Shown here piece after piece: positions 9,623 to 26,586 of a stretch of DNA of 62,357 nucleotides. Under the pieces are notes generated by a model that had not been told where the DNA came from, made no database searches, and saw only the letters and a list, made by a program, of their open reading frames with translations. Numbering within the stretch: the first letter of the stretch is position 1; every line of letters starts with the position of its first letter. The DNA is from Acidimicrobiia bacterium. Lineage in GTDB: Bacteria > Actinomycetota > Acidimicrobiia > Spongiisociales > ZC4RG35. The stretch covers positions 1 to 62,357 of the forward strand of contig DASWKK010000095.1 in NCBI GenBank assembly GCA_036396655.1, written 5' to 3'. A program made the position numbers and the translations under genes.

Positions 9623-10912
9623 CTACGAAAAACTGCCGCGCGTGCTCTCGGGTGCATCTGCTTCCGACGGTGGGGCGGATCTGGCGAAGTACATGTCTAT
9701 CTCGCCCTTGCCTTTGACTTCGACCTTTCCCCGATGCTCGAACTGGAATGCAGGGTGATGCTCCACGAGGGCGAACGTGGTTCCGCTCACGTTGACTTCA
9801 CCGACCGACCCAGCAGCCTCCAACCGGGAGGCGGTGTTGACTGTGTCACCCCACACGTCGTACTGGAACTTCGTATCTCCGACCACACCGGCCACGACGG
9901 GCCCGGAATGGACTCCGATCCGCATCTCGAATGCTGGCTTTCCTGCTATCCGGTTGGCGGTGACGTGGCGGTCCATGAACTGCTGCATCTGCAGAGCGGC
10001 TTGGAGTGCGTTCGAAGGCGACGACCCTACGCCCAGGGCCAAGCCGGAAACAGCCATATATGCGTCACCGATGGTCTTGATCTTTTCCAGACCGTGGTCC
10101 CGCATGATGGAGTCGAAGGCGTAGAAGCAGGTGTTCAACTCCTCAACGAGGGTGGTGGGGGTCATATCCGAGCTGATCTCGGTGAAGTTCTGGAAATCGC
10201 TGAACAGGACGGTCACCTCGTCGAACTCCCGGGCTTGGGCGTGACCGGTGGCTTTCAGCTCTTCTGCCACGTCTTCGGGGAGGATGTTGAGAAGCAAGGC
10301 CTGAGTCTTCTCCCTCTCCTCCTCGACTTGGCGGAGCGCAGTCCGCGCAATGGCGTCGAAGTCGCGAACTATTAGGAAGATGATGACCACCAGGCCGAGG
10401 AACGCGGCGAGCTTGAAAGCAGCGTCGACGTCGGCATCGAAAGTCAAAGGGAAGTCCACACCGGCCAGCTCCGCGATGCCCAGGATCAAGACTTCGGCGA
10501 CGACCACGAGAAACCAGATCAGACCCGCTCTGGCCCCGATCAGCATGAGACCCAGCATCGGGATGATGGCGACGTAGGGGCTGGTGATCGACGTGCTCAA
10601 TCCTCCGCTCGTGGTGGTGATCAGGACGGTGTCGAGAAAGATGATCCCGATGTAGACGTTGGCGACCACTGTCCGGCTCATCCCCCTCTTGACGAGGAAA
10701 GGCAACGCTGCCATCGCGAGCCCACTCGCCGCCATCGCGTAGACGCCGACCGGGAAGCCCACCACAACCGAGACCCCGCAGTAGATGAGGGCGAGTGCGC
10801 CGGTCAGGAAACAGACGAAGACCAGGTTGCGGTGCTTCTTGAGCTCGTCGGTCGACGGGGCACTTCCCGGCGGGAGGAAGCGGTCCTCCCAGCCCTCAAA
10901 CCGTGGCTGCAT
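9623..10912 (-). CDS. Class III adenylate cyclase with about 6 N-terminal TM helices
   Basis: VLFSDFQNFT, EKIKTIGDAYM, RIGVHSGPVVAGVVG, YDVWGDTVNTASRLE. Lys/Asp pair indicates ATP specificity. Confidence 0.93.
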   Translation of the reverse strand: MQPRFEGWEDRFLPPGSAPSTDELKKHRNLVFVCFLTGALALIYCGVSVVVGFPVGVYAMAASGLAMAALPFLVKRGMSRTVVANVYIGIIFLDTVLITTTSGGLSTSITSPYVAIIPMLGLMLIGARAGLIWFLVVVAEVLILGIAELAGVDFPLTFDADVDAAFKLAAFLGLVVIIFLIVRDFDAIARTALRQVEEEREKTQALLLNILPEDVAEELKATGHAQAREFDEVTVLFSDFQNFTEISSDMTPTTLVEELNTCFYAFDSIMRDHGLEKIKTIGDAYMAVSGLALGVGSSPSNALQAALQMQQFMDRHVTANRIAGKPAFEMRIGVHSGPVVAGVVGDTKFQYDVWGDTVNTASRLEAAGSVGEVNVSGTTFALVEHHPAFQFEHRGKVEVKGKGEIDMYFARSAPPSEADAPESTRGSFS

Positions 10913-11588
10913 CCTGCACCGATGGCGGTCTGACCTTGTAGAGGAGGCCCAGGTAGTAGATGTCGAGTAGAGCAACTGCCAGATAGAGGCTGGTCAGCGC
11001 ATTGTTCTCGGGATACTTGGTGTAGAACATGACTCCGATGATTCCGGTGCCGAGGAACTTGCACCAGCCGATCGCCTTGGAGCTGGGCTCTGAGGTGGGG
11101 ACGAAGAACAGGTAGATGAACGCGGCGCTCATCACCAGATTGATGATGAACGAGTTGAGGGGCGCCATCGGCAGGTCGTACTGGAGAATGAAGGTGCATT
11201 GGACCAGGAAGAGGAGCGGGATCCAGCCGGCCATCAGCAGTCGGAACCTCTTCCTTAGATACGGTGTCCTCACCTGTTTGTGCCCGTATCGGAACAGACC
11301 GATCACGATGAATACGTCGAGGACCATCCACGCCCAGTAGGCAATGACCAAAACCGACCCCATGTCGGGAACGAAGAAGATCGAGGTCGTGATCTCGGTG
11401 CCGAAATTGAGTGTCACCGCGATGAAGGGGATGGCTAGTTCGCGGACTGTGACCAGCCGGCGGATTGTGATGAGGTAAACGACGATCCAAAAGACGGCTC
11501 CTACGGTGAACATCCCAATCTGCAGCGTGGTGTACGCCTCCGTGTTGAACCAGGGCCCCGGGTCGCGCAGGTACTCCCAGATGGTCAC
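10896..11588 (-). CDS. PaxB/Pyr4-like integral-membrane terpene cyclase homologue
   Basis: 230 aa, about 7 TM. W-x3-Y, IP-x2-A-x3-N-x3-E (E65), W-x2-LD, NLVMS, WCKFLGT and a last-helix Asp (D209). GTG overlaps the upstream TGA. Confidence 0.7.
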   Translation of the reverse strand: MTIWEYLRDPGPWFNTEAYTTLQIGMFTVGAVFWIVVYLITIRRLVTVRELAIPFIAVTLNFGTEITTSIFFVPDMGSVLVIAYWAWMVLDVFIVIGLFRYGHKQVRTPYLRKRFRLLMAGWIPLLFLVQCTFILQYDLPMAPLNSFIINLVMSAAFIYLFFVPTSEPSSKAIGWCKFLGTGIIGVMFYTKYPENNALTSLYLAVALLDIYYLGLLYKVRPPSVQDAATV

Positions 11589-13360
11589 CTGTCGCGTCTC
11601 GCTCCTGGTGTGATGACGTTGAGCAACGATCTGATCGCGAGGATTGCTGTGAAGGCGATGCTCCAGGGCACGATGAAGAGGCTCATCGCCCATGGGACCC
11701 GAGCGCTCCACGCTTGACCCACTGCGAACCGGCGTTTGTCCAGCCACTTGAACGGCGCGAAGAACAAAGGCTCGCTCAGCTGCCAGACCCTGCACAAAGG
11801 GCGGTCGGATCGGTCGGCTGCGAGGATCCCGTTCACTGCCCTTCTCGCCGCCTCGTTGGCACCCTCCATGGTCGCCAGGTCGGTATTGGTGCGGACATAG
11901 TCGGCGGCCAGGAACAGATTGGGGATCCGCGTGACGGCCTCGGGACGCAAGGCCCAACTGTTCACGGTGTTGACGAGGAGGGGCTCCATGTCGTCGTCCC
12001 GTTTCTCGGCAGGGTTCCAGCGGATGTCGCGGTCGAGGTACCAGTGGACGATCATGTCCTTCGACATCAGTGTCTTCCCGCCGACGTTGAGGCTCCTCTC
12101 TATCTGATCCCAGACCAGGTTTTTGACCTGCTCGGCTTGGGCGTCGTCGGCGAGAACGCCGTCGTAGGTGGTGTGCAGCCAGTCGCTTATGTCGACGCTC
12201 AGGATTCCCTTCACCTCGCCGTTGAACCGGTCTTCGAGGGCGTAGTCGTCCCAGAACTGGATCTGGGAGATCCCCGTGATGGCCCACTCGCTGTCACTGA
12301 AGATGATGTGTCCCCTGGTGACCTCGACCTCTTGGTTCAGATAGAACTGGATGCCGTTCATCCAACTGACGCTATCGGCCAGTGTCTTGACGAGGCCGAG
12401 GGTTTGGTCGGCTTCCACGATCGCCTGGTTGAGGAGCGGGGCGGCCCGCTCGACAGGAACGGCGAGGATGAAGTGGTCGCCAGTCACCGCCCCGACGCCG
12501 GTTTCGGGGTGACTGACATCGATGCTGGCGATCTTCCCCTCCTCGAGAGTGATGCTCCTCACCCGGGTCCCGTGGTGGTACTCGACGCCCAGGGAGCGGA
12601 GGTGCTCGAGCCAAGGAGTGAGCCAGACGTCGTTGGTCGGCCCGTTGAGTACCCGGTCTGTCTGGCCACCGGGGGTCATCATCGTGTAGAGGAGTTGGAG
12701 GAGGATGTCGCCACCGGTCTTGGTGCTCGCTGAACGGGCCTGGGCAGCAACGAGAGTCCGGGTAAGGCCGGCCACCAGAAGCGTCTGGTAGGTCTTGCTG
12801 AATCGATCGGCGTCGAGGTAGTCCCACCAACTGAGCCGCTCGTAATCGGTATAGCGTCTCTCCCTACAGCTGGTCATCAGCTGCCACATCCGCTCGGCGA
12901 AGAACTCCTCCTCTTCGGTGGTCAGTCCCACATCGATGCCGCTGTGGAGGTCTTTGACGATGACCTCGAGGTCCGAAAGCGACCGGGGAAAGCTGGCATC
13001 GGTGATGATCGGCTCTTTGTCGTAGCGGGCGATCATCACCCTTTCGGTGCTCACCAGATTGTCGAGACAACCATGCCTGTTCAGGGTCCCATCGGCGCGG
13101 CGAAACGGGATTCGACTCATGGTGTCGGTGACGTGTTTGTAGAAGCCGGGAAAGAAGCGAAAGCCGTGCTCGCCCGGGAGGTAGCGGTCAGGCGCTCGGA
13201 TGTTGGTGCCGGGAACGTCGACCGATCGCGCCTTACCCCCCACATACTGCGGGTTCCGTTCGAAGACCTCCACTGCATACCCGCGTTCTGCCAGCTCTTG
13301 GGCGGCGCTCATACCGGCTACTCCGCCGCCAATGATTATGACCCGCTTCTGCGCATCCAT
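11585..13360 (-). CDS. FAD-dependent oxidoreductase, phytoene desaturase/CrtU/HpnE-like superfamily
   Basis: IIGGGVAGMSAA dinucleotide fold, GGKARS, GEHGFRFFPGFY, NLFLAADYV...ATMEGANEAARRAV. Confidence 0.85.
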   Translation of the reverse strand: MDAQKRVIIIGGGVAGMSAAQELAERGYAVEVFERNPQYVGGKARSVDVPGTNIRAPDRYLPGEHGFRFFPGFYKHVTDTMSRIPFRRADGTLNRHGCLDNLVSTERVMIARYDKEPIITDASFPRSLSDLEVIVKDLHSGIDVGLTTEEEEFFAERMWQLMTSCRERRYTDYERLSWWDYLDADRFSKTYQTLLVAGLTRTLVAAQARSASTKTGGDILLQLLYTMMTPGGQTDRVLNGPTNDVWLTPWLEHLRSLGVEYHHGTRVRSITLEEGKIASIDVSHPETGVGAVTGDHFILAVPVERAAPLLNQAIVEADQTLGLVKTLADSVSWMNGIQFYLNQEVEVTRGHIIFSDSEWAITGISQIQFWDDYALEDRFNGEVKGILSVDISDWLHTTYDGVLADDAQAEQVKNLVWDQIERSLNVGGKTLMSKDMIVHWYLDRDIRWNPAEKRDDDMEPLLVNTVNSWALRPEAVTRIPNLFLAADYVRTNTDLATMEGANEAARRAVNGILAADRSDRPLCRVWQLSEPLFFAPFKWLDKRRFAVGQAWSARVPWAMSLFIVPWSIAFTAILAIRSLLNVITPGARRDR

Positions 13361-13484
13361 TCAGGTGAAGCTAAGCGCGGTAACCCGACCCATGTCGGCC
13401 AGAAATGCCCGGAGAAATCACGTAGACGTGCAAGGAGGGGCGATCCGATGTCGAAGCGGCGGATGGATTCGTCACCATGACTTC

Positions 13485-14114
13485 TCAGAGCCCTGGGGTG
13501 GCTCTGACCATGCCGCCACCGGATCGAGGACCTGGGACGACGATGCCAAGCCAGGCCGGGAAGGGACCGAGCTGTGTCTGGTAGGTGACGGTGTCGAGGC
13601 TTTGAATGAGCCAGCGGGGAGAGGCGAAGGTCGTCCGGATCTCAGCCTCGGATATCTTCGGGTATGGGATGTCGGCCTTGTCGCTGATCTCGAGCAGGAT
13701 GAGCCGACCGTTGGGTTGGATCACGGCGGCGAGTTGGTCGGAATAGCCGGGCTTGTCGTCGATCACGTGAAGCAGGGCTGAGTCCATCACTGTCGGGAAG
13801 CGTCGGCCGAGCACGTCGAGTTTGTGGGCGTCCGCCACGACGAACTCGACGGGAAGCGACCGGTCGGTGGCCTTGGCAGTCGCCAGCTCGATGGCGCGGG
13901 CAGAGGAATCGACAGCCACTACCTCGAGTCCGTGTCGGGCGAGCTCCAGCGCGTTCTCGCCGGTTCCGCAGCCCACATCGAGGACTGGCCCGACAAGCGA
14001 ACCCTCGGCCGCCAACTGGGCAATGACAGGCTGAGCTGCTCCGATCTCCCAAGGCGGCAGCTGCCGATACGCAGACTCGAAATCGACTTCCGGGTTTGGA
14101 GCGCTGGATTCCAT
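13485..14114 (-). CDS. Class I SAM-dependent methyltransferase (Rv0560c-like N-terminus)
   Basis: PPWEIGAAQP and VLDVGCGTGEN motif I. Alternative ATG at 14123. Confidence 0.9.
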   Translation of the reverse strand: MESSAPNPEVDFESAYRQLPPWEIGAAQPVIAQLAAEGSLVGPVLDVGCGTGENALELARHGLEVVAVDSSARAIELATAKATDRSLPVEFVVADAHKLDVLGRRFPTVMDSALLHVIDDKPGYSDQLAAVIQPNGRLILLEISDKADIPYPKISEAEIRTTFASPRWLIQSLDTVTYQTQLGPFPAWLGIVVPGPRSGGGMVRATPGL

Positions 14115-14212
14115 GCCTGCCATGTTGTCCGTATCGGCGCAGCGATGCGACCTGATTATCCGCCATGTCCATGGAGAGCATGTGATGGCGGGCATGGATG
14201 TAAGTTTCTCCG

Positions 14213-14875
14213 ATGGACCTCGAAGACCTTCGTCTAGCTGTGTATCGCTCGTTCGCGACGACCGGAGTGCCGCCGAGCTACGACGAGCTGGCTCCACGTC
14301 TTGGAGGGACCCACGACGATCTCACCCGCGGGATCAGGCGTCTCGCCGAGGAGAGACACGTTGTGGTCGACGAGGCCGGGAGCATCGTCATGGCGCACCC
14401 TTTCGCCTCGATCCCCCTCGGCTTCTCGGTCATGGGCAGGAACACTTTGTGGTGGGGCGGATGCTGCTGGGACTCGTTCGCCATCCCCCACCTGCTCACT
14501 GACGAGCCAGACGTCCTCGTGGCGACGAGGTGCCCCGGCTGCAACCGGCCCCAGGCTTGGGCCGTCGGTCGGGAGGGACCGCCGGGTGGTGACTGGCTTG
14601 CCCACTTCCTGGTCCCTGTGTCCCGGATGTGGGACGACGTGGTCCACACATGTCGCAATCAACGTCTGTTCTGCTCCGAGCGCTGCATCGACGGTTGGCT
14701 GCAGCGGAACAGCTACCAGCAGGGCTTTGTGATGGACGTGGAGACCCTATGGCGTCTCGCCGCCGGCTGGTACCAGGGACGTCTCGAGCGTGGGTACGTG
14801 AGACGGGATCCGGTCGCGGCCGCCGAATATCTGCGCAGCGTCGGTTTGGTTGACCCGTTCTGGGGCACGGCCTGA
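14213..14875 (+). CDS. Organomercurial lyase MerB-like protein
   Basis: N-terminal winged helix, AHPF, GGCCWD (C-x2-D), TRCPGC, HFLVP...WDDVVHTC...FCS. Confidence 0.8.
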   Translation: MDLEDLRLAVYRSFATTGVPPSYDELAPRLGGTHDDLTRGIRRLAEERHVVVDEAGSIVMAHPFASIPLGFSVMGRNTLWWGGCCWDSFAIPHLLTDEPDVLVATRCPGCNRPQAWAVGREGPPGGDWLAHFLVPVSRMWDDVVHTCRNQRLFCSERCIDGWLQRNSYQQGFVMDVETLWRLAAGWYQGRLERGYVRRDPVAAAEYLRSVGLVDPFWGTA

Positions 14876-25174: not shown

Positions 25175-26586
25175 GTCTCCGCACCAGACTCGTCATCTCG
25201 TTCACGGTCCTCTTGCTGGTGGTGGTGGTAACGGTCGGCTTTGTTGCCTCCCGCTCCATCGAAGGCATCCTCATCGCACAGATCGATCGACTCCTGGTCG
25301 GTTTCGTCGAGCGGGGCCCGTTCCCCGGCCAGCTCATCCCCGGGCCCGACGAAGTCGAGCGAGGCCCGTTCCATCGCGACGTCGCCGAGGTGGTTCTCAA
25401 CAAAGACGGCGTGGAGATCTTCGCCGCCCCCTCCGGGTTCGCCGACGACCCCGACCCGTTGCCCGACGTCTCCGAGCTCCCCGACCGCACCGAGCCGGTG
25501 TTCCTCGCCGCGGTCGACAACAGCCTTCGGTACCGGGCCGTTGTCATCCGTTTTCCCGACGGCTTCGAGCTACCCGGCGGAGTGAGCATCGCCGAGGGCA
25601 TCACCGTGGTCCGGGCCGCCCCCCTGACCGACGTCGAAGCGGCGGGCAATCGGCTGTTCCAGAGCGTTGCCCTCGCAGGCGCCGGGGTGCTGTTCCTCGG
25701 CGGGGCCGGCACCTGGTGGACGGTGAAACGCTCGATGCGCCCCGTCGAGCAGATGGTGGAGACGGCCGAGGCAATCGCGTCGGGCGATCTATCCCGTCGT
25801 GTCCCTGAGTTGGAGCCGGGAACCGAGCTCGGCAGGCTGGGCGGCTCCCTCAACGTGATGCTGACCCACATCGAGGAAGCGGTCGAGGTGGAGATGGAGG
25901 CCCAAGACCGGCTGCGCCGCTTCGTCGCCGATGCATCCCACGAGCTGCGAACCCCGGTTACCGCCATCTCCGGCTACGCCGAGCTGCGTCGGAGAGGGGG
26001 GCTGACCACCCCCGAGGAGGAGGAAAAGGCCTGGTCCCGTATCGAAAGCGAAGGACGGCGGATGGGGTCCTTGGTCGAGGATCTGCTCACCCTGACCCGA
26101 CTCGGGCAGGGCAAACCGCTCGACCTCGCCCAGGTCGACCTGGCCCGAGTCGCCCGCAACGCCGCCCAGGACCATCAAGTGATCGACCCGGAACGGCCGA
26201 TCACGGTCATCGCGACCGACGCCCTGGTCATCGAGGCCGACGAGGAGCGGCTCCACCAGGTGATCAGCAACCTCTTGAGCAACGTCCGGGTCCACACCCC
26301 ACCGTGGACCAAGGTGGAGATCGCCCTGGTCGAGCGGAACGACGACATCGTGATCGTGGTCGCCGACGATGGGATCGGCTTTCCCGAAGCCGATCTGGAC
26401 CATGTCTTCGACCGCTTTTACCGGGCAGACCCCTCCCGCTCTCGTCGGTCTGGGGGCAGCGGACTGGGCCTCGCCATCGTCGCCGCGATCGTGATCGCAC
26501 ACGGGGGCACGGTCGAGGCTTCCAACGTCGAAGGGGGCGGGGCCAAGATCGGCATCACCCTCCCCCGCCGGTCTCATCTCGACTGA
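25171..26586 (+). CDS. HAMP sensor histidine kinase
   Basis: Two TM, HAMP, ADASHELRTP, NLLSNV, DDGIGF, GSGLGLAIV. ATGA overlap with the RR. Confidence 0.96.
   Translation: MSLRTRLVISFTVLLLVVVVTVGFVASRSIEGILIAQIDRLLVGFVERGPFPGQLIPGPDEVERGPFHRDVAEVVLNKDGVEIFAAPSGFADDPDPLPDVSELPDRTEPVFLAAVDNSLRYRAVVIRFPDGFELPGGVSIAEGITVVRAAPLTDVEAAGNRLFQSVALAGAGVLFLGGAGTWWTVKRSMRPVEQMVETAEAIASGDLSRRVPELEPGTELGRLGGSLNVMLTHIEEAVEVEMEAQDRLRRFVADASHELRTPVTAISGYAELRRRGGLTTPEEEEKAWSRIESEGRRMGSLVEDLLTLTRLGQGKPLDLAQVDLARVARNAAQDHQVIDPERPITVIATDALVIEADEERLHQVISNLLSNVRVHTPPWTKVEIALVERNDDIVIVVADDGIGFPEADLDHVFDRFYRADPSRSRRSGGSGLGLAIVAAIVIAHGGTVEASNVEGGGAKIGITLPRRSHLD

Follow-up and report, generated by a model that had tools for sequence, protein, structure and literature searches.

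Membrane-embedded terpene cyclases of the Pyr4/PaxB type, among them fungal Pyr4, PaxB and MacJ as well as bacterial XiaH/XiaE, DmtA1, TylF, GroF and ZigF, are proteins of ~230 aa with seven helices that match the family PF25129. They carry a Glu in an N-x3-E motif, an Asp in the last helix and, in the olefin-protonating members, extra intramembrane acids (PMC6173783). Here we describe a protein that is alike in all of these respects and is encoded by the middle gene of a three-gene operon from an Acidimicrobiia bacterium, in a stretch of 62,357 nt (the window; contig DASWKK010000095.1 of GenBank assembly GCA_036396655.1). The first gene encodes a flavoenzyme related to phytoene desaturase (PDS), the second the Pyr4-type terpene cyclase and the third a class III adenylate cyclase (AC) that follows a membrane domain of six transmembrane helices (6TM). 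In contrast to the described cyclases, the one in the window lies outside a natural-product cluster, has a PDS-like flavoenzyme as its partner and is followed by a signalling gene or, in relatives, fused to a signalling domain. It has Thr at residue 64, where Trp is usual, and its carriers are Acidimicrobiia and Bacteroidota, not Streptomyces-type producers. Judged from comparative sequence analysis, the trio is most likely an enzyme-coupled intramembrane isoprenoid sensing module with cyclic AMP (cAMP) as its output.

For decades it has been asked what the six-helix anchors of class III ACs sense, and lipids have been implicated only recently, via the screening of extracts. Lipids regulate mycobacterial Rv1625c and mammalian ACs via their 6TM domains (PMC12505454, PMC11606603), and the 6TM receptor domain of the quorum-sensing protein CqsS drives a class III AC when grafted onto it (PMC4821796). 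The AC in the window shares with Rv1625c/Cya and the mammalian enzymes a class IIIa domain with six canonical residues and the order of six-helix domain, helical linker and cyclase, as well as the idea of the membrane domain as a lipid receptor (PMC12505454, PMC11606603, PMC12414865). Its membrane domain differs in that it has no detectable similarity to that of Rv1625c/Cya and is common to histidine kinases (HKs). Here, candidate ligand-making enzymes share the operon with the AC, and to our knowledge no operon linkage to ligand-making enzymes exists for Rv1625c or the mammalian ACs.

Pairs of a lipid signal synthase and a membrane receptor are known in CqsA/CqsS, with the signal CAI-1, and in RpfF/RpfC, with the signal DSF. 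As in these pairs, the gene of a lipid-modifying enzyme adjoins that of a multi-pass receptor with little extramembrane sequence, and enzyme and receptor genes are conserved side by side here as well (39/45 loci, with the flavoenzyme upstream in all). The chemistry differs, in that the predicted reactions are oxidation and cyclisation of an isoprenoid, where those signals derive from acyl chains; both enzymes sit in the membrane, cAMP is the usual output and nothing indicates that a signal is released from the cell. Another parallel is the carotenoid pair of PDS/CrtI and membrane lycopene cyclase, in which a desaturase-like enzyme also precedes an acid-catalysed membrane cyclase, and plant PDS is the best fold match of the flavoenzyme described here. 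However, its scores against PDS, CrtI and HpnE fall far under the cut-offs, the cyclase belongs to a family other than CrtY, CrtYcd or CruA, and phytoene or squalene synthase is unlinked. In BceS-BceAB and LiaS-LiaF, which pair an intramembrane-sensing HK with accessory membrane proteins, a membrane-only input domain, too, is genetically coupled to, and co-evolves with, another membrane protein, although the partner here is an isoprenoid enzyme and not a transporter, the input has six helices against two, and the output is often a nucleotide cyclase. The parts of the cassette come from known families and a synthase beside a receptor is a known arrangement, but the combination appears to be undescribed: the literature searched holds no description of a Pyr4-type cyclase with an isoprenoid oxidoreductase and a dedicated membrane domain driving cAMP or a phosphorelay, in line with a preliminary description of the locus, made from its letters alone, which knew of no system with this trio. 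A survey of bacterial Pyr4-like proteins kept only 264 of 1107, those with terpenoid genes nearby, and left signalling partners unmentioned (PMC13307353).

A conserved three-gene cassette

We picked loci (L numbers) by a close homologue of the Pyr4-type cyclase, with one genome per species, which gave 48 loci. The carriers are Acidimicrobiia and many Bacteroidota, including Chitinophagaceae, Cytophagales, Flavobacteriales, Saprospiraceae and Kapaibacterium. They are soil and freshwater heterotrophs, and the cultured ones among the 48 are Algoriphagus aestuarii KCTC 42199, Aquiflexum lacus and Ilyomonas limi. By tblastn across the 48 loci, the flavoenzyme lies upstream of the cyclase in every locus that has upstream sequence, and in 39 of the 45 loci that have enough sequence downstream, the start of a sensor gene of the same 6TM family lies no more than a few bases from the cyclase stop. 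Six diverse neighbourhoods, spanning 85% to 47% identity, all hold flavoenzyme, cyclase and signalling protein (6/6), and the genes that flank the cassette vary between loci. The tightest junction of the operon is the one between cyclase and sensor, at -17 to +2 nt across called loci. The trio is a conserved cassette; the preliminary description had proposed a survey of neighbourhoods for co-occurrence, and the outcome is a trio kept together across two phyla between unrelated flanks. Within 5-8 kb in 11 related neighbourhoods annotated with Pfam we found no prenyl synthase, prenyltransferase, phytoene or squalene synthase, P450, polyketide synthase (PKS), non-ribosomal peptide synthetase (NRPS) or PaxM-type epoxidase gene, and no transporter or catabolic genes are linked to the cassette in the neighbourhoods. 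Two loci carry additional ACs: one (L026:2208-7948) has two sensor-AC genes on either side of the cyclase, the first of them between flavoenzyme and cyclase, and the other (L054:3650-8048) has, besides a downstream kinase-type sensor, a further AC catalytic domain immediately ahead of the flavoenzyme.

Exchangeable outputs on a co-evolving membrane domain

The third gene encodes a class III AC in most loci and an HK in several lineages. Two types of HK, mutually only ~24% identical, replace the AC, and the N-terminal 195 residues of the HKs align without gaps to the 6TM domain of the AC (BLASTP 1e-20 and 7e-19). HK and AC versions interleave in neighbour-joining trees of both the cyclase and the 6TM domain, for example with L056_HK as sister to L053_AC, which implies that the output has been exchanged at least twice. 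One HK cassette (L064:6607-12289) is followed by a stand-alone response regulator and then by a response-regulator::nucleotide-cyclase fusion, a gene content from which the phosphorelay version, too, may lead to a cyclic nucleotide; in the same locus, a truncated HATPase/SnoaL-like open reading frame (ORF) lies ahead of the flavoenzyme. By the domains encoded, cAMP is one of several outputs.

In a comparison of 27 AC-type loci, the pairwise identities of the 6TM domain follow those of the terpene cyclase closely (r = 0.90) and those of the catalytic domain in the same protein less so (r = 0.54). Partial Mantel correlations for the 6TM domain (TM), terpene cyclase (TC), flavoenzyme (FAD) and catalytic domain (CAT) of these loci point the same way, with r(TM,TC given FAD,CAT) = 0.86 (p <= 0.0005) and r(TM,CAT given TC,FAD) = -0.09, and the cyclase tree is largely congruent with that of the 6TM domain. 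In these comparisons the Pyr4-type cyclase and the 6TM domain evolve as a single unit. The swapping of outputs on a common 6TM domain, the co-evolution of that domain with the cyclase and the fusions described below together argue for functional coupling of the trio.

Two loci look like mosaics relative to the window. In L044 and L050 (6001-7955 region) the flavoenzyme (66-68% identity) and the AC catalytic domain (59-62%) are window-like, whereas the cyclase (45-48%) and the 6TM domain (28-29%) cluster with those of Chitinophagaceae L026 and L041. This pattern suggests that the segment of cyclase plus 6TM domain has been exchanged between lineages.

The Pyr4-type terpene cyclase

The cyclase matches PF25129 (Pyr4-TMTC) over residues 19-193 with 39.3 bits against a gathering score of 27, and its close homologues match the same family. 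An AlphaFold2 (AF2) model has seven long helices, with a predicted local distance difference test score (pLDDT) of 92.7 and a predicted template modelling score (pTM) of 0.87. The PaxB-like membrane terpene cyclase of the preliminary description is thus recovered by profile and by helix count. Membership of the PaxB fold was judged via the Pfam profile, for want of any solved Pyr4-family structure: a search of PDB sequences gave no match for the cyclase, and Foldseek with the model found nothing significant in the PDB. SWEET, PQ-loop and KDEL-receptor proteins ranked first in that comparison (probability ~1.0, E 0.03-0.3, TM 0.5-0.6, not significant), a weak resemblance that may hint at the origin of the Pyr4 fold. 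Close relatives number 82 in a collection of 5.8 billion proteins and come from Acidimicrobiia and Bacteroidota; the wider family comprises 1090 representative clusters in an exhaustive profile search.

The acids expected of such a cyclase are kept. N61, E65, D91 and D209 are invariant in 58/58 close homologues, and the wider family, sampled by 140 representative clusters, keeps E65 in 138, D209 in 137, D91 in 131 and N61 in 127, with residue 138 being D in 123 and E in 10. The N-x3-E glutamate and the last-helix Asp pointed out earlier are therefore family-wide features. Residue 64 is W in 133/140 representatives and T in the clade of the window only, so the TE reported in place of the usual WE is likewise real; within the trio clade, residue 64 varies between T, C, F, W, N and S. 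We equate E65 and D209 with E63 and D218 of Pyr4 and with E60 and D214 of DmtA1 by position and by their invariance across the family. In DmtA1, E60, the counterpart of E65, is essential, and D214, to which D209 corresponds by position, is the conserved last-helix Asp of membrane terpene cyclases (PMC6173783). DmtA1 and MacJ, which protonate a plain olefin and not an epoxide, have additional acids; DmtA1 cyclises a non-epoxidised prenyl chain through olefin protonation (PMC6173783). By analogy, D91 and D138 as extra acids of the olefin-protonating type would go well with a non-epoxidase partner, which we take as a lead and not as a result.

The flavoenzyme

The flavoenzyme matches PF01593 (Amino_oxidase) with 63.8 bits and PF13450 with 46 bits in Pfam, and has a GxGxxG motif at residues 11-16. 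It falls below the cut-offs of the equivalog models for HpnE (93 bits, cut-off 283) and PDS (41.9 bits, cut-off 569), and scores lower still against those for ZDS, CrtI and CrtD. The top PDB fold match of its AF2 model (pLDDT 85.8) is rice phytoene desaturase 5mog (E 5e-23, TMt 0.83), with an E-value about a thousand-fold better than those of the next folds, which are amine oxidases, oleate hydratases and a CrtI-like desaturase. Matches to the PaxM-type FAD_binding_3 family are marginal and confined to the Rossmann motif, which agrees with the earlier view of the protein as desaturase-like and not PaxM-like. In relatives of ~800 aa the C-terminal anchor helix runs on into the membrane domain DUF6989. 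By its modelled fold, the flavoenzyme is placed as a membrane-anchored member of the long-chain-isoprenoid desaturase branch. About 150 positions are invariant among 44 homologues; because of these positions, the PDS-like fold and the near-invariance of E65 and D209, both the flavoenzyme and the cyclase look catalytically active.

The adenylate cyclase and its membrane domain

The catalytic domain of the AC matches PF00211 (Guanylate_cyc) with 191.7 bits; among solved structures it is closest to mammalian AC5, AC9 and AC8 and to mycobacterial Cya/Rv1625c. D239, K279, D283, D356, N359 and R363 are invariant in 31/31 AC-type sensors; we take these to be the two metal-binding Asp, the Lys/Asp pair that selects ATP and the transition-state Asn and Arg of class III enzymes.

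The membrane domain has six hydrophobic segments in residues 28-193 that are kept across the alignment, and it is nearly without extramembrane loops. Conserved positions are F12-x-P14, an invariant G103-G104 in the region of the third helix, P112, and G173 in the last helix. Against MASE6 (PF20966) the domain in the window scores 12.7-14.5 bits, below the gathering score of 27.4. Among 28 members of the 6TM family, weak matches occur to MASE6 (8/28, best E 5e-5), MASE11 (6/28) and MASE7 (1/28). By these scores it is an unclassified MASE-like domain, of a related kind and not a member of MASE6. A profile of 28 sensor domains searched against PDB sequences found neither 7yzi/Cya nor another AC membrane domain at E <= 10. 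We reject an Rv1625c-type anchor at the sequence level, since the 6TM profile has no match to the Rv1625c anchor. The preliminary description had set the protein beside Rv1625c-type cyclases with their 6TM anchors, and by sequence that comparison fits the catalytic domain and the overall layout, but not the membrane anchor. A search of the sequence collection with the 6TM domain alone returned two matches.

Fusions and alternative designs

We surveyed fusions among the best 150 of the 1090 cyclase-family clusters. The Pyr4 domain is fused to Guanylate_cyc (P0265), HisKA-HATPase (P0287), GGDEF-EAL (P0242) and PAS-REC (P0336). These four proteins and P0268 have in common a soluble region of ~250 aa (residues ~225-500) between cyclase and output, with the motifs VLEGNI and DDPF..VF.AL. 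It matches no Pfam or NCBIfam family, and, given its position, it may serve as a transducer or bind a lipid. Two further proteins (P0261 and P0312) join a Pyr4-type domain to a TonB-dependent receptor (Plug and barrel) and to prolipoprotein diacylglyceryl transferase (LGT); these fusions may be real or may be artefacts of gene calling or assembly.

Many close homologues of the flavoenzyme are proteins of ~800 aa with DUF6989 (PF22497) as a C-terminal membrane domain. In three loci (L063:7001-10680, L067:5001-8663 and L070:5001-8734; flavoenzyme 54-62% identity) such a flavoenzyme::DUF6989 protein is followed, with a gap of 0-3 nt or an overlap of 4 nt, by an AC with the same 6TM family, in 3/3 unrelated contexts. 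DUF6989 has conserved intramembrane Glu and Asp residues, and matches no Pfam or NCBIfam family beyond its own model. Profile-profile comparisons of DUF6989 with the cyclase, of DUF6989 with the 6TM domain and of the cyclase with the 6TM domain detected no relation, and the idea that DUF6989 is a divergent cyclase was rejected on that ground. On this sequence evidence, DUF6989 appears to be a non-homologous substitute for the Pyr4-type cyclase.

A second design replaces the flavoenzyme. Distant Pyr4-type cyclases (27-28% identity) are preceded by an oxygenase of the MpaB/Lcp-like family (PF09995), a family that cleaves prenyl chains and polyisoprene (rubber). In one locus (L060:4724-8798) oxygenase and cyclase are followed by a 7TMR-DISM HK in overlapping genes, in another (L066:4702-8154) the oxygenase precedes a cyclase::AC fusion, and P0238 is itself a fusion of cyclase and MpaB/Lcp-type oxygenase. 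A Myxococcales locus (L062:4356-6387) has oxygenase and cyclase and no visible sensor. That two unrelated oxidative families occupy one slot points to oxidised isoprenoids as the common currency.

Proposed mechanism and competing explanations

In the mechanism that we propose, the flavoenzyme, held at the membrane by its C-terminal helix, would oxidise a resident polyisoprenoid lipid, probably by desaturation; reasoning suggests a carotenoid or squalene precursor, menaquinone with its prenyl tail or a polyprenol as candidates. The Pyr4-type cyclase would protonate an olefin of this lipid via E65, with D209, D91 and D138, and then cyclise it. The co-evolving six-helix domain would bind the cyclised lipid inside the membrane, and binding would alter the activity of the attached homodimeric class III AC and with it the level of cAMP. 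With an oxidation as the first step, the cassette would serve as a readout of redox state, of oxygen or of isoprenoid supply; an autocrine or quorum-type lipid signal would be an alternative role. We put forward the cyclised product as the ligand of the 6TM domain only tentatively. It was chosen because the same 6TM family pairs with two non-homologous membrane enzymes, because lipid regulation via 6TM anchors has experimental precedent (PMC12505454, PMC11606603, PMC4821796) and because the catalytic acids of the cyclase are retained. In the preliminary description the two enzymes modify a membrane isoprenoid whose product tunes cAMP output: the families, the cassette and the evidence of coupling bear this out, whereas the step from product to cAMP, like the substrate, the chemistry, the identity of product and ligand and whether cAMP rises or falls, is something that we infer.

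Several observations count against this mechanism. Membership of a PDS-like fold does not establish desaturase chemistry, and the fold family also holds isomerases, reductases and oxidases. No isoprenoid-supply gene that would point to a particular lipid is linked to the cassette. The cyclase and 6TM segments are contiguous, so that joint recombination could yield their co-variation without ligand specificity. A clade of six genomes (L027-L032) has flavoenzyme and cyclase with the sensor absent within 6 kb. Finally, the fusions of terpene cyclase to an output have the cyclase as their sole membrane domain, with no separate receptor, and by their architecture fit the cyclase itself as the sensing element better.

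The fusions of the terpene cyclase to AC, HK and GGDEF-EAL are also the starting point for the main rival, a co-receptor or flux explanation, in which the Pyr4-type protein itself would sense, its occupancy or turnover with an isoprenoid prepared by the flavoenzyme would be passed to the 6TM domain by helix-helix contact in a membrane complex, and the product need not be the ligand. Such a complex would be similar to intramembrane-sensing kinases with accessory membrane proteins, such as BceAB-BceS or LiaF-LiaS. The tight junction between cyclase and sensor suggests translational coupling of the partners in a complex, co-evolution this strong, with congruent trees, is what interacting proteins typically show, and a 6TM domain almost without extramembrane loops would suit such contact. 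However, the DUF6989 variant swaps the membrane domain and keeps the 6TM family, which a common lipid explains more easily than a common interface; the soluble domain of ~250 aa in the fusions could bind product; and the catalytic acids are kept, although a pure receptor would have no need of them. On balance we consider this explanation rather unlikely. The substrate could instead come from outside the cell, with the enzymes processing an environmental isoprenoid taken into the membrane (a plant, fungal or algal terpenoid, a carotenoid, a sterol precursor or polyisoprene) and the receptor reporting its presence, so that catabolism or behaviour responds. Isoprenoid biosynthesis genes are linked in no annotated neighbourhood, the parallel design uses oxygenases of a family that cleaves prenyl chains and rubber, and the carriers are soil and freshwater heterotrophs. 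Yet transporter and catabolic genes are equally unlinked, and a universal endogenous lipid fits the cassette just as well, so that the origin of the substrate is not distinguished by these points; we see an environmental source as unlikely. A biosynthetic operon would make a pigment, a membrane lipid or a meroterpenoid, with the AC or HK regulating its expression or co-transcribed by chance. The characterised Pyr4-family enzymes are biosynthetic (PMC13307353, PMC11109268, PMC6173783), a desaturase followed by a cyclase is the logic of the carotenoid pathway, and the sensor-free clade L027-L032 has just these two enzymes. Against this, genes for prenyltransferase, prenyl synthase, PKS, NRPS and P450 are absent from the annotated neighbourhoods, the filter for terpenoid neighbours keeps less than a quarter of bacterial Pyr4-like proteins (264/1107; PMC13307353), and a regulator that merely lies nearby leaves the swapped outputs, the co-evolution of 6TM domain and cyclase and the covalent fusions unexplained. 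We hold a biosynthetic role to be very unlikely, and we reject its narrower form, a natural-product cluster, given that scaffold and prenyl-supply genes are in none of the annotated neighbourhoods.

If the trio is an isoprenoid sensing module as proposed, two lipid-modifying enzymes in one operon with an AC anchor, across phyla, make the question of its ligand directly testable, and since three of the carriers are in culture, tests are feasible. About three quarters of bacterial Pyr4-like cyclases, those without terpenoid neighbours (PMC13307353), would gain a physiological role that is not antibiotic. The findings suggest a recruitment of isoprenoid cyclisation chemistry into signalling, extending to proteins in which the cyclase is joined to histidine kinases or to enzymes of cyclic di-GMP (c-di-GMP) turnover. 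It is possible, though we would stop short of calling it probable, that the Pyr4-type fold is a widespread sensory input in bacteria, an enzyme-receptor that would convert an oxidised isoprenoid of the membrane and feed cAMP, two-component and c-di-GMP outputs via a dedicated, co-evolving 6TM partner or a direct fusion. If so, this would be the first cassette to define genetically the ligand-producing enzymes of a 6TM AC anchor.

Locus layout and surroundings

The coordinates of the operon and of its main features are collected in Table 1. The flavoenzyme stop and the cyclase start overlap by 4 nt (GTGA, 11585-11588; ...AGG TGA / GTG ACC...), and the cyclase stop and the AC start by 17 nt (10896-10912), with the ATG of the AC inside GAT GCA GCC ACG GTT TGA. 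Both overlaps recur in a locus that is 85% identical (L001) and whose genes were called independently, so that the three minus-strand genes with overlaps of 4 and 17 nt, as first described, are borne out by the sequence and by these calls. Homologues of 413-432 aa that begin with the same N-terminus speak for 10912 as the first position of the AC gene.

Table 1 Features of the operon, with positions in the window
Feature	Position	Strand	Remark
Operon of three minus-strand genes	9623..13360	-	Acidimicrobiia bacterium window
Flavoenzyme gene, 591 aa	11585..13360	-	Flavin adenine dinucleotide (FAD), PDS/HpnE/CrtI-like, membrane-anchored
Flavoenzyme C-terminal transmembrane anchor helix, residues 557-583	11612..11692	-	Long helix in AF2 model and hydrophobic sequence
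Pyr4/PaxB-family 7TM terpene cyclase gene, 230 aa, GTG start	10896..11588	-	PF25129 match
N61-x3-E65 motif (NFGTE), E65 presumed Bronsted acid	11394..11408	-	N61 and E65 invariant in homologues
D91 codon, extra intramembrane acid	11316..11318	-	Conserved across family
D138 codon, further intramembrane acid	11175..11177	-	D or E in family
D209 codon, last-helix Asp	10962..10964	-	Conserved across family
6TM sensor and class III AC gene, 429 aa, ATG start	9623..10912	-	PF00211 match
N-terminal six-helix membrane sensor domain, residues 1-195	10328..10912	-	MASE-like, unclassified
Class IIIa nucleotide cyclase catalytic domain, residues 226-409	9686..10237	-	PF00211
Intergenic gap, 124 nt, presumed operon promoter	13361..13484	-	Between flavoenzyme and methyltransferase genes

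A scan of the region upstream of the flavoenzyme found no consensus sigma-70 promoter, and there is no Shine-Dalgarno-like sequence ahead of its ATG. A TAGCTT hexamer lies 7 nt 5' of that ATG. Because of this hexamer and the absent ribosome-binding sequence, a leaderless start is plausible, as is a single leaderless transcript from the intergenic gap.

The closest genome match is a metagenome-assembled genome of Acidimicrobiia from soil, with a Pyr4-type cyclase that is 95% identical. The preliminary description saw no prenyl synthase gene in the window; among the six genes nearest the operon, the part of the 62 kb that we checked, there is none. A tblastn search for a gene encoding a cyclic-nucleotide-monophosphate-binding or Crp protein found none in the window with only two query examples from related loci.

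In the clade L027-L032, which is made up of Chitinophagaceae/Bacteroidota, the cyclase has 53% identity and the spacers measure 150-560 nt (L027:3051-6684, L031:3590-6699). In L027 and L031, the two loci that were checked, the flavoenzyme is preceded by a soluble ORF of 97 aa that is 96% identical between them; the downstream genes of the clade look mobile (AAA_25, Dam methylase).

The nearest neighbours of the operon in the window are unrelated to it. Downstream of the operon lie a convergent gene without a known family and then an EamA transporter. Upstream, at 13485-14875, a minus-strand S-adenosylmethionine (SAM) methyltransferase gene is overlapped by a divergently oriented gene for a MerB-like alkylmercury lyase. 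Farther away, an HK catalytic domain that is unrelated to the cassette is encoded on the plus strand at 25912-26571.

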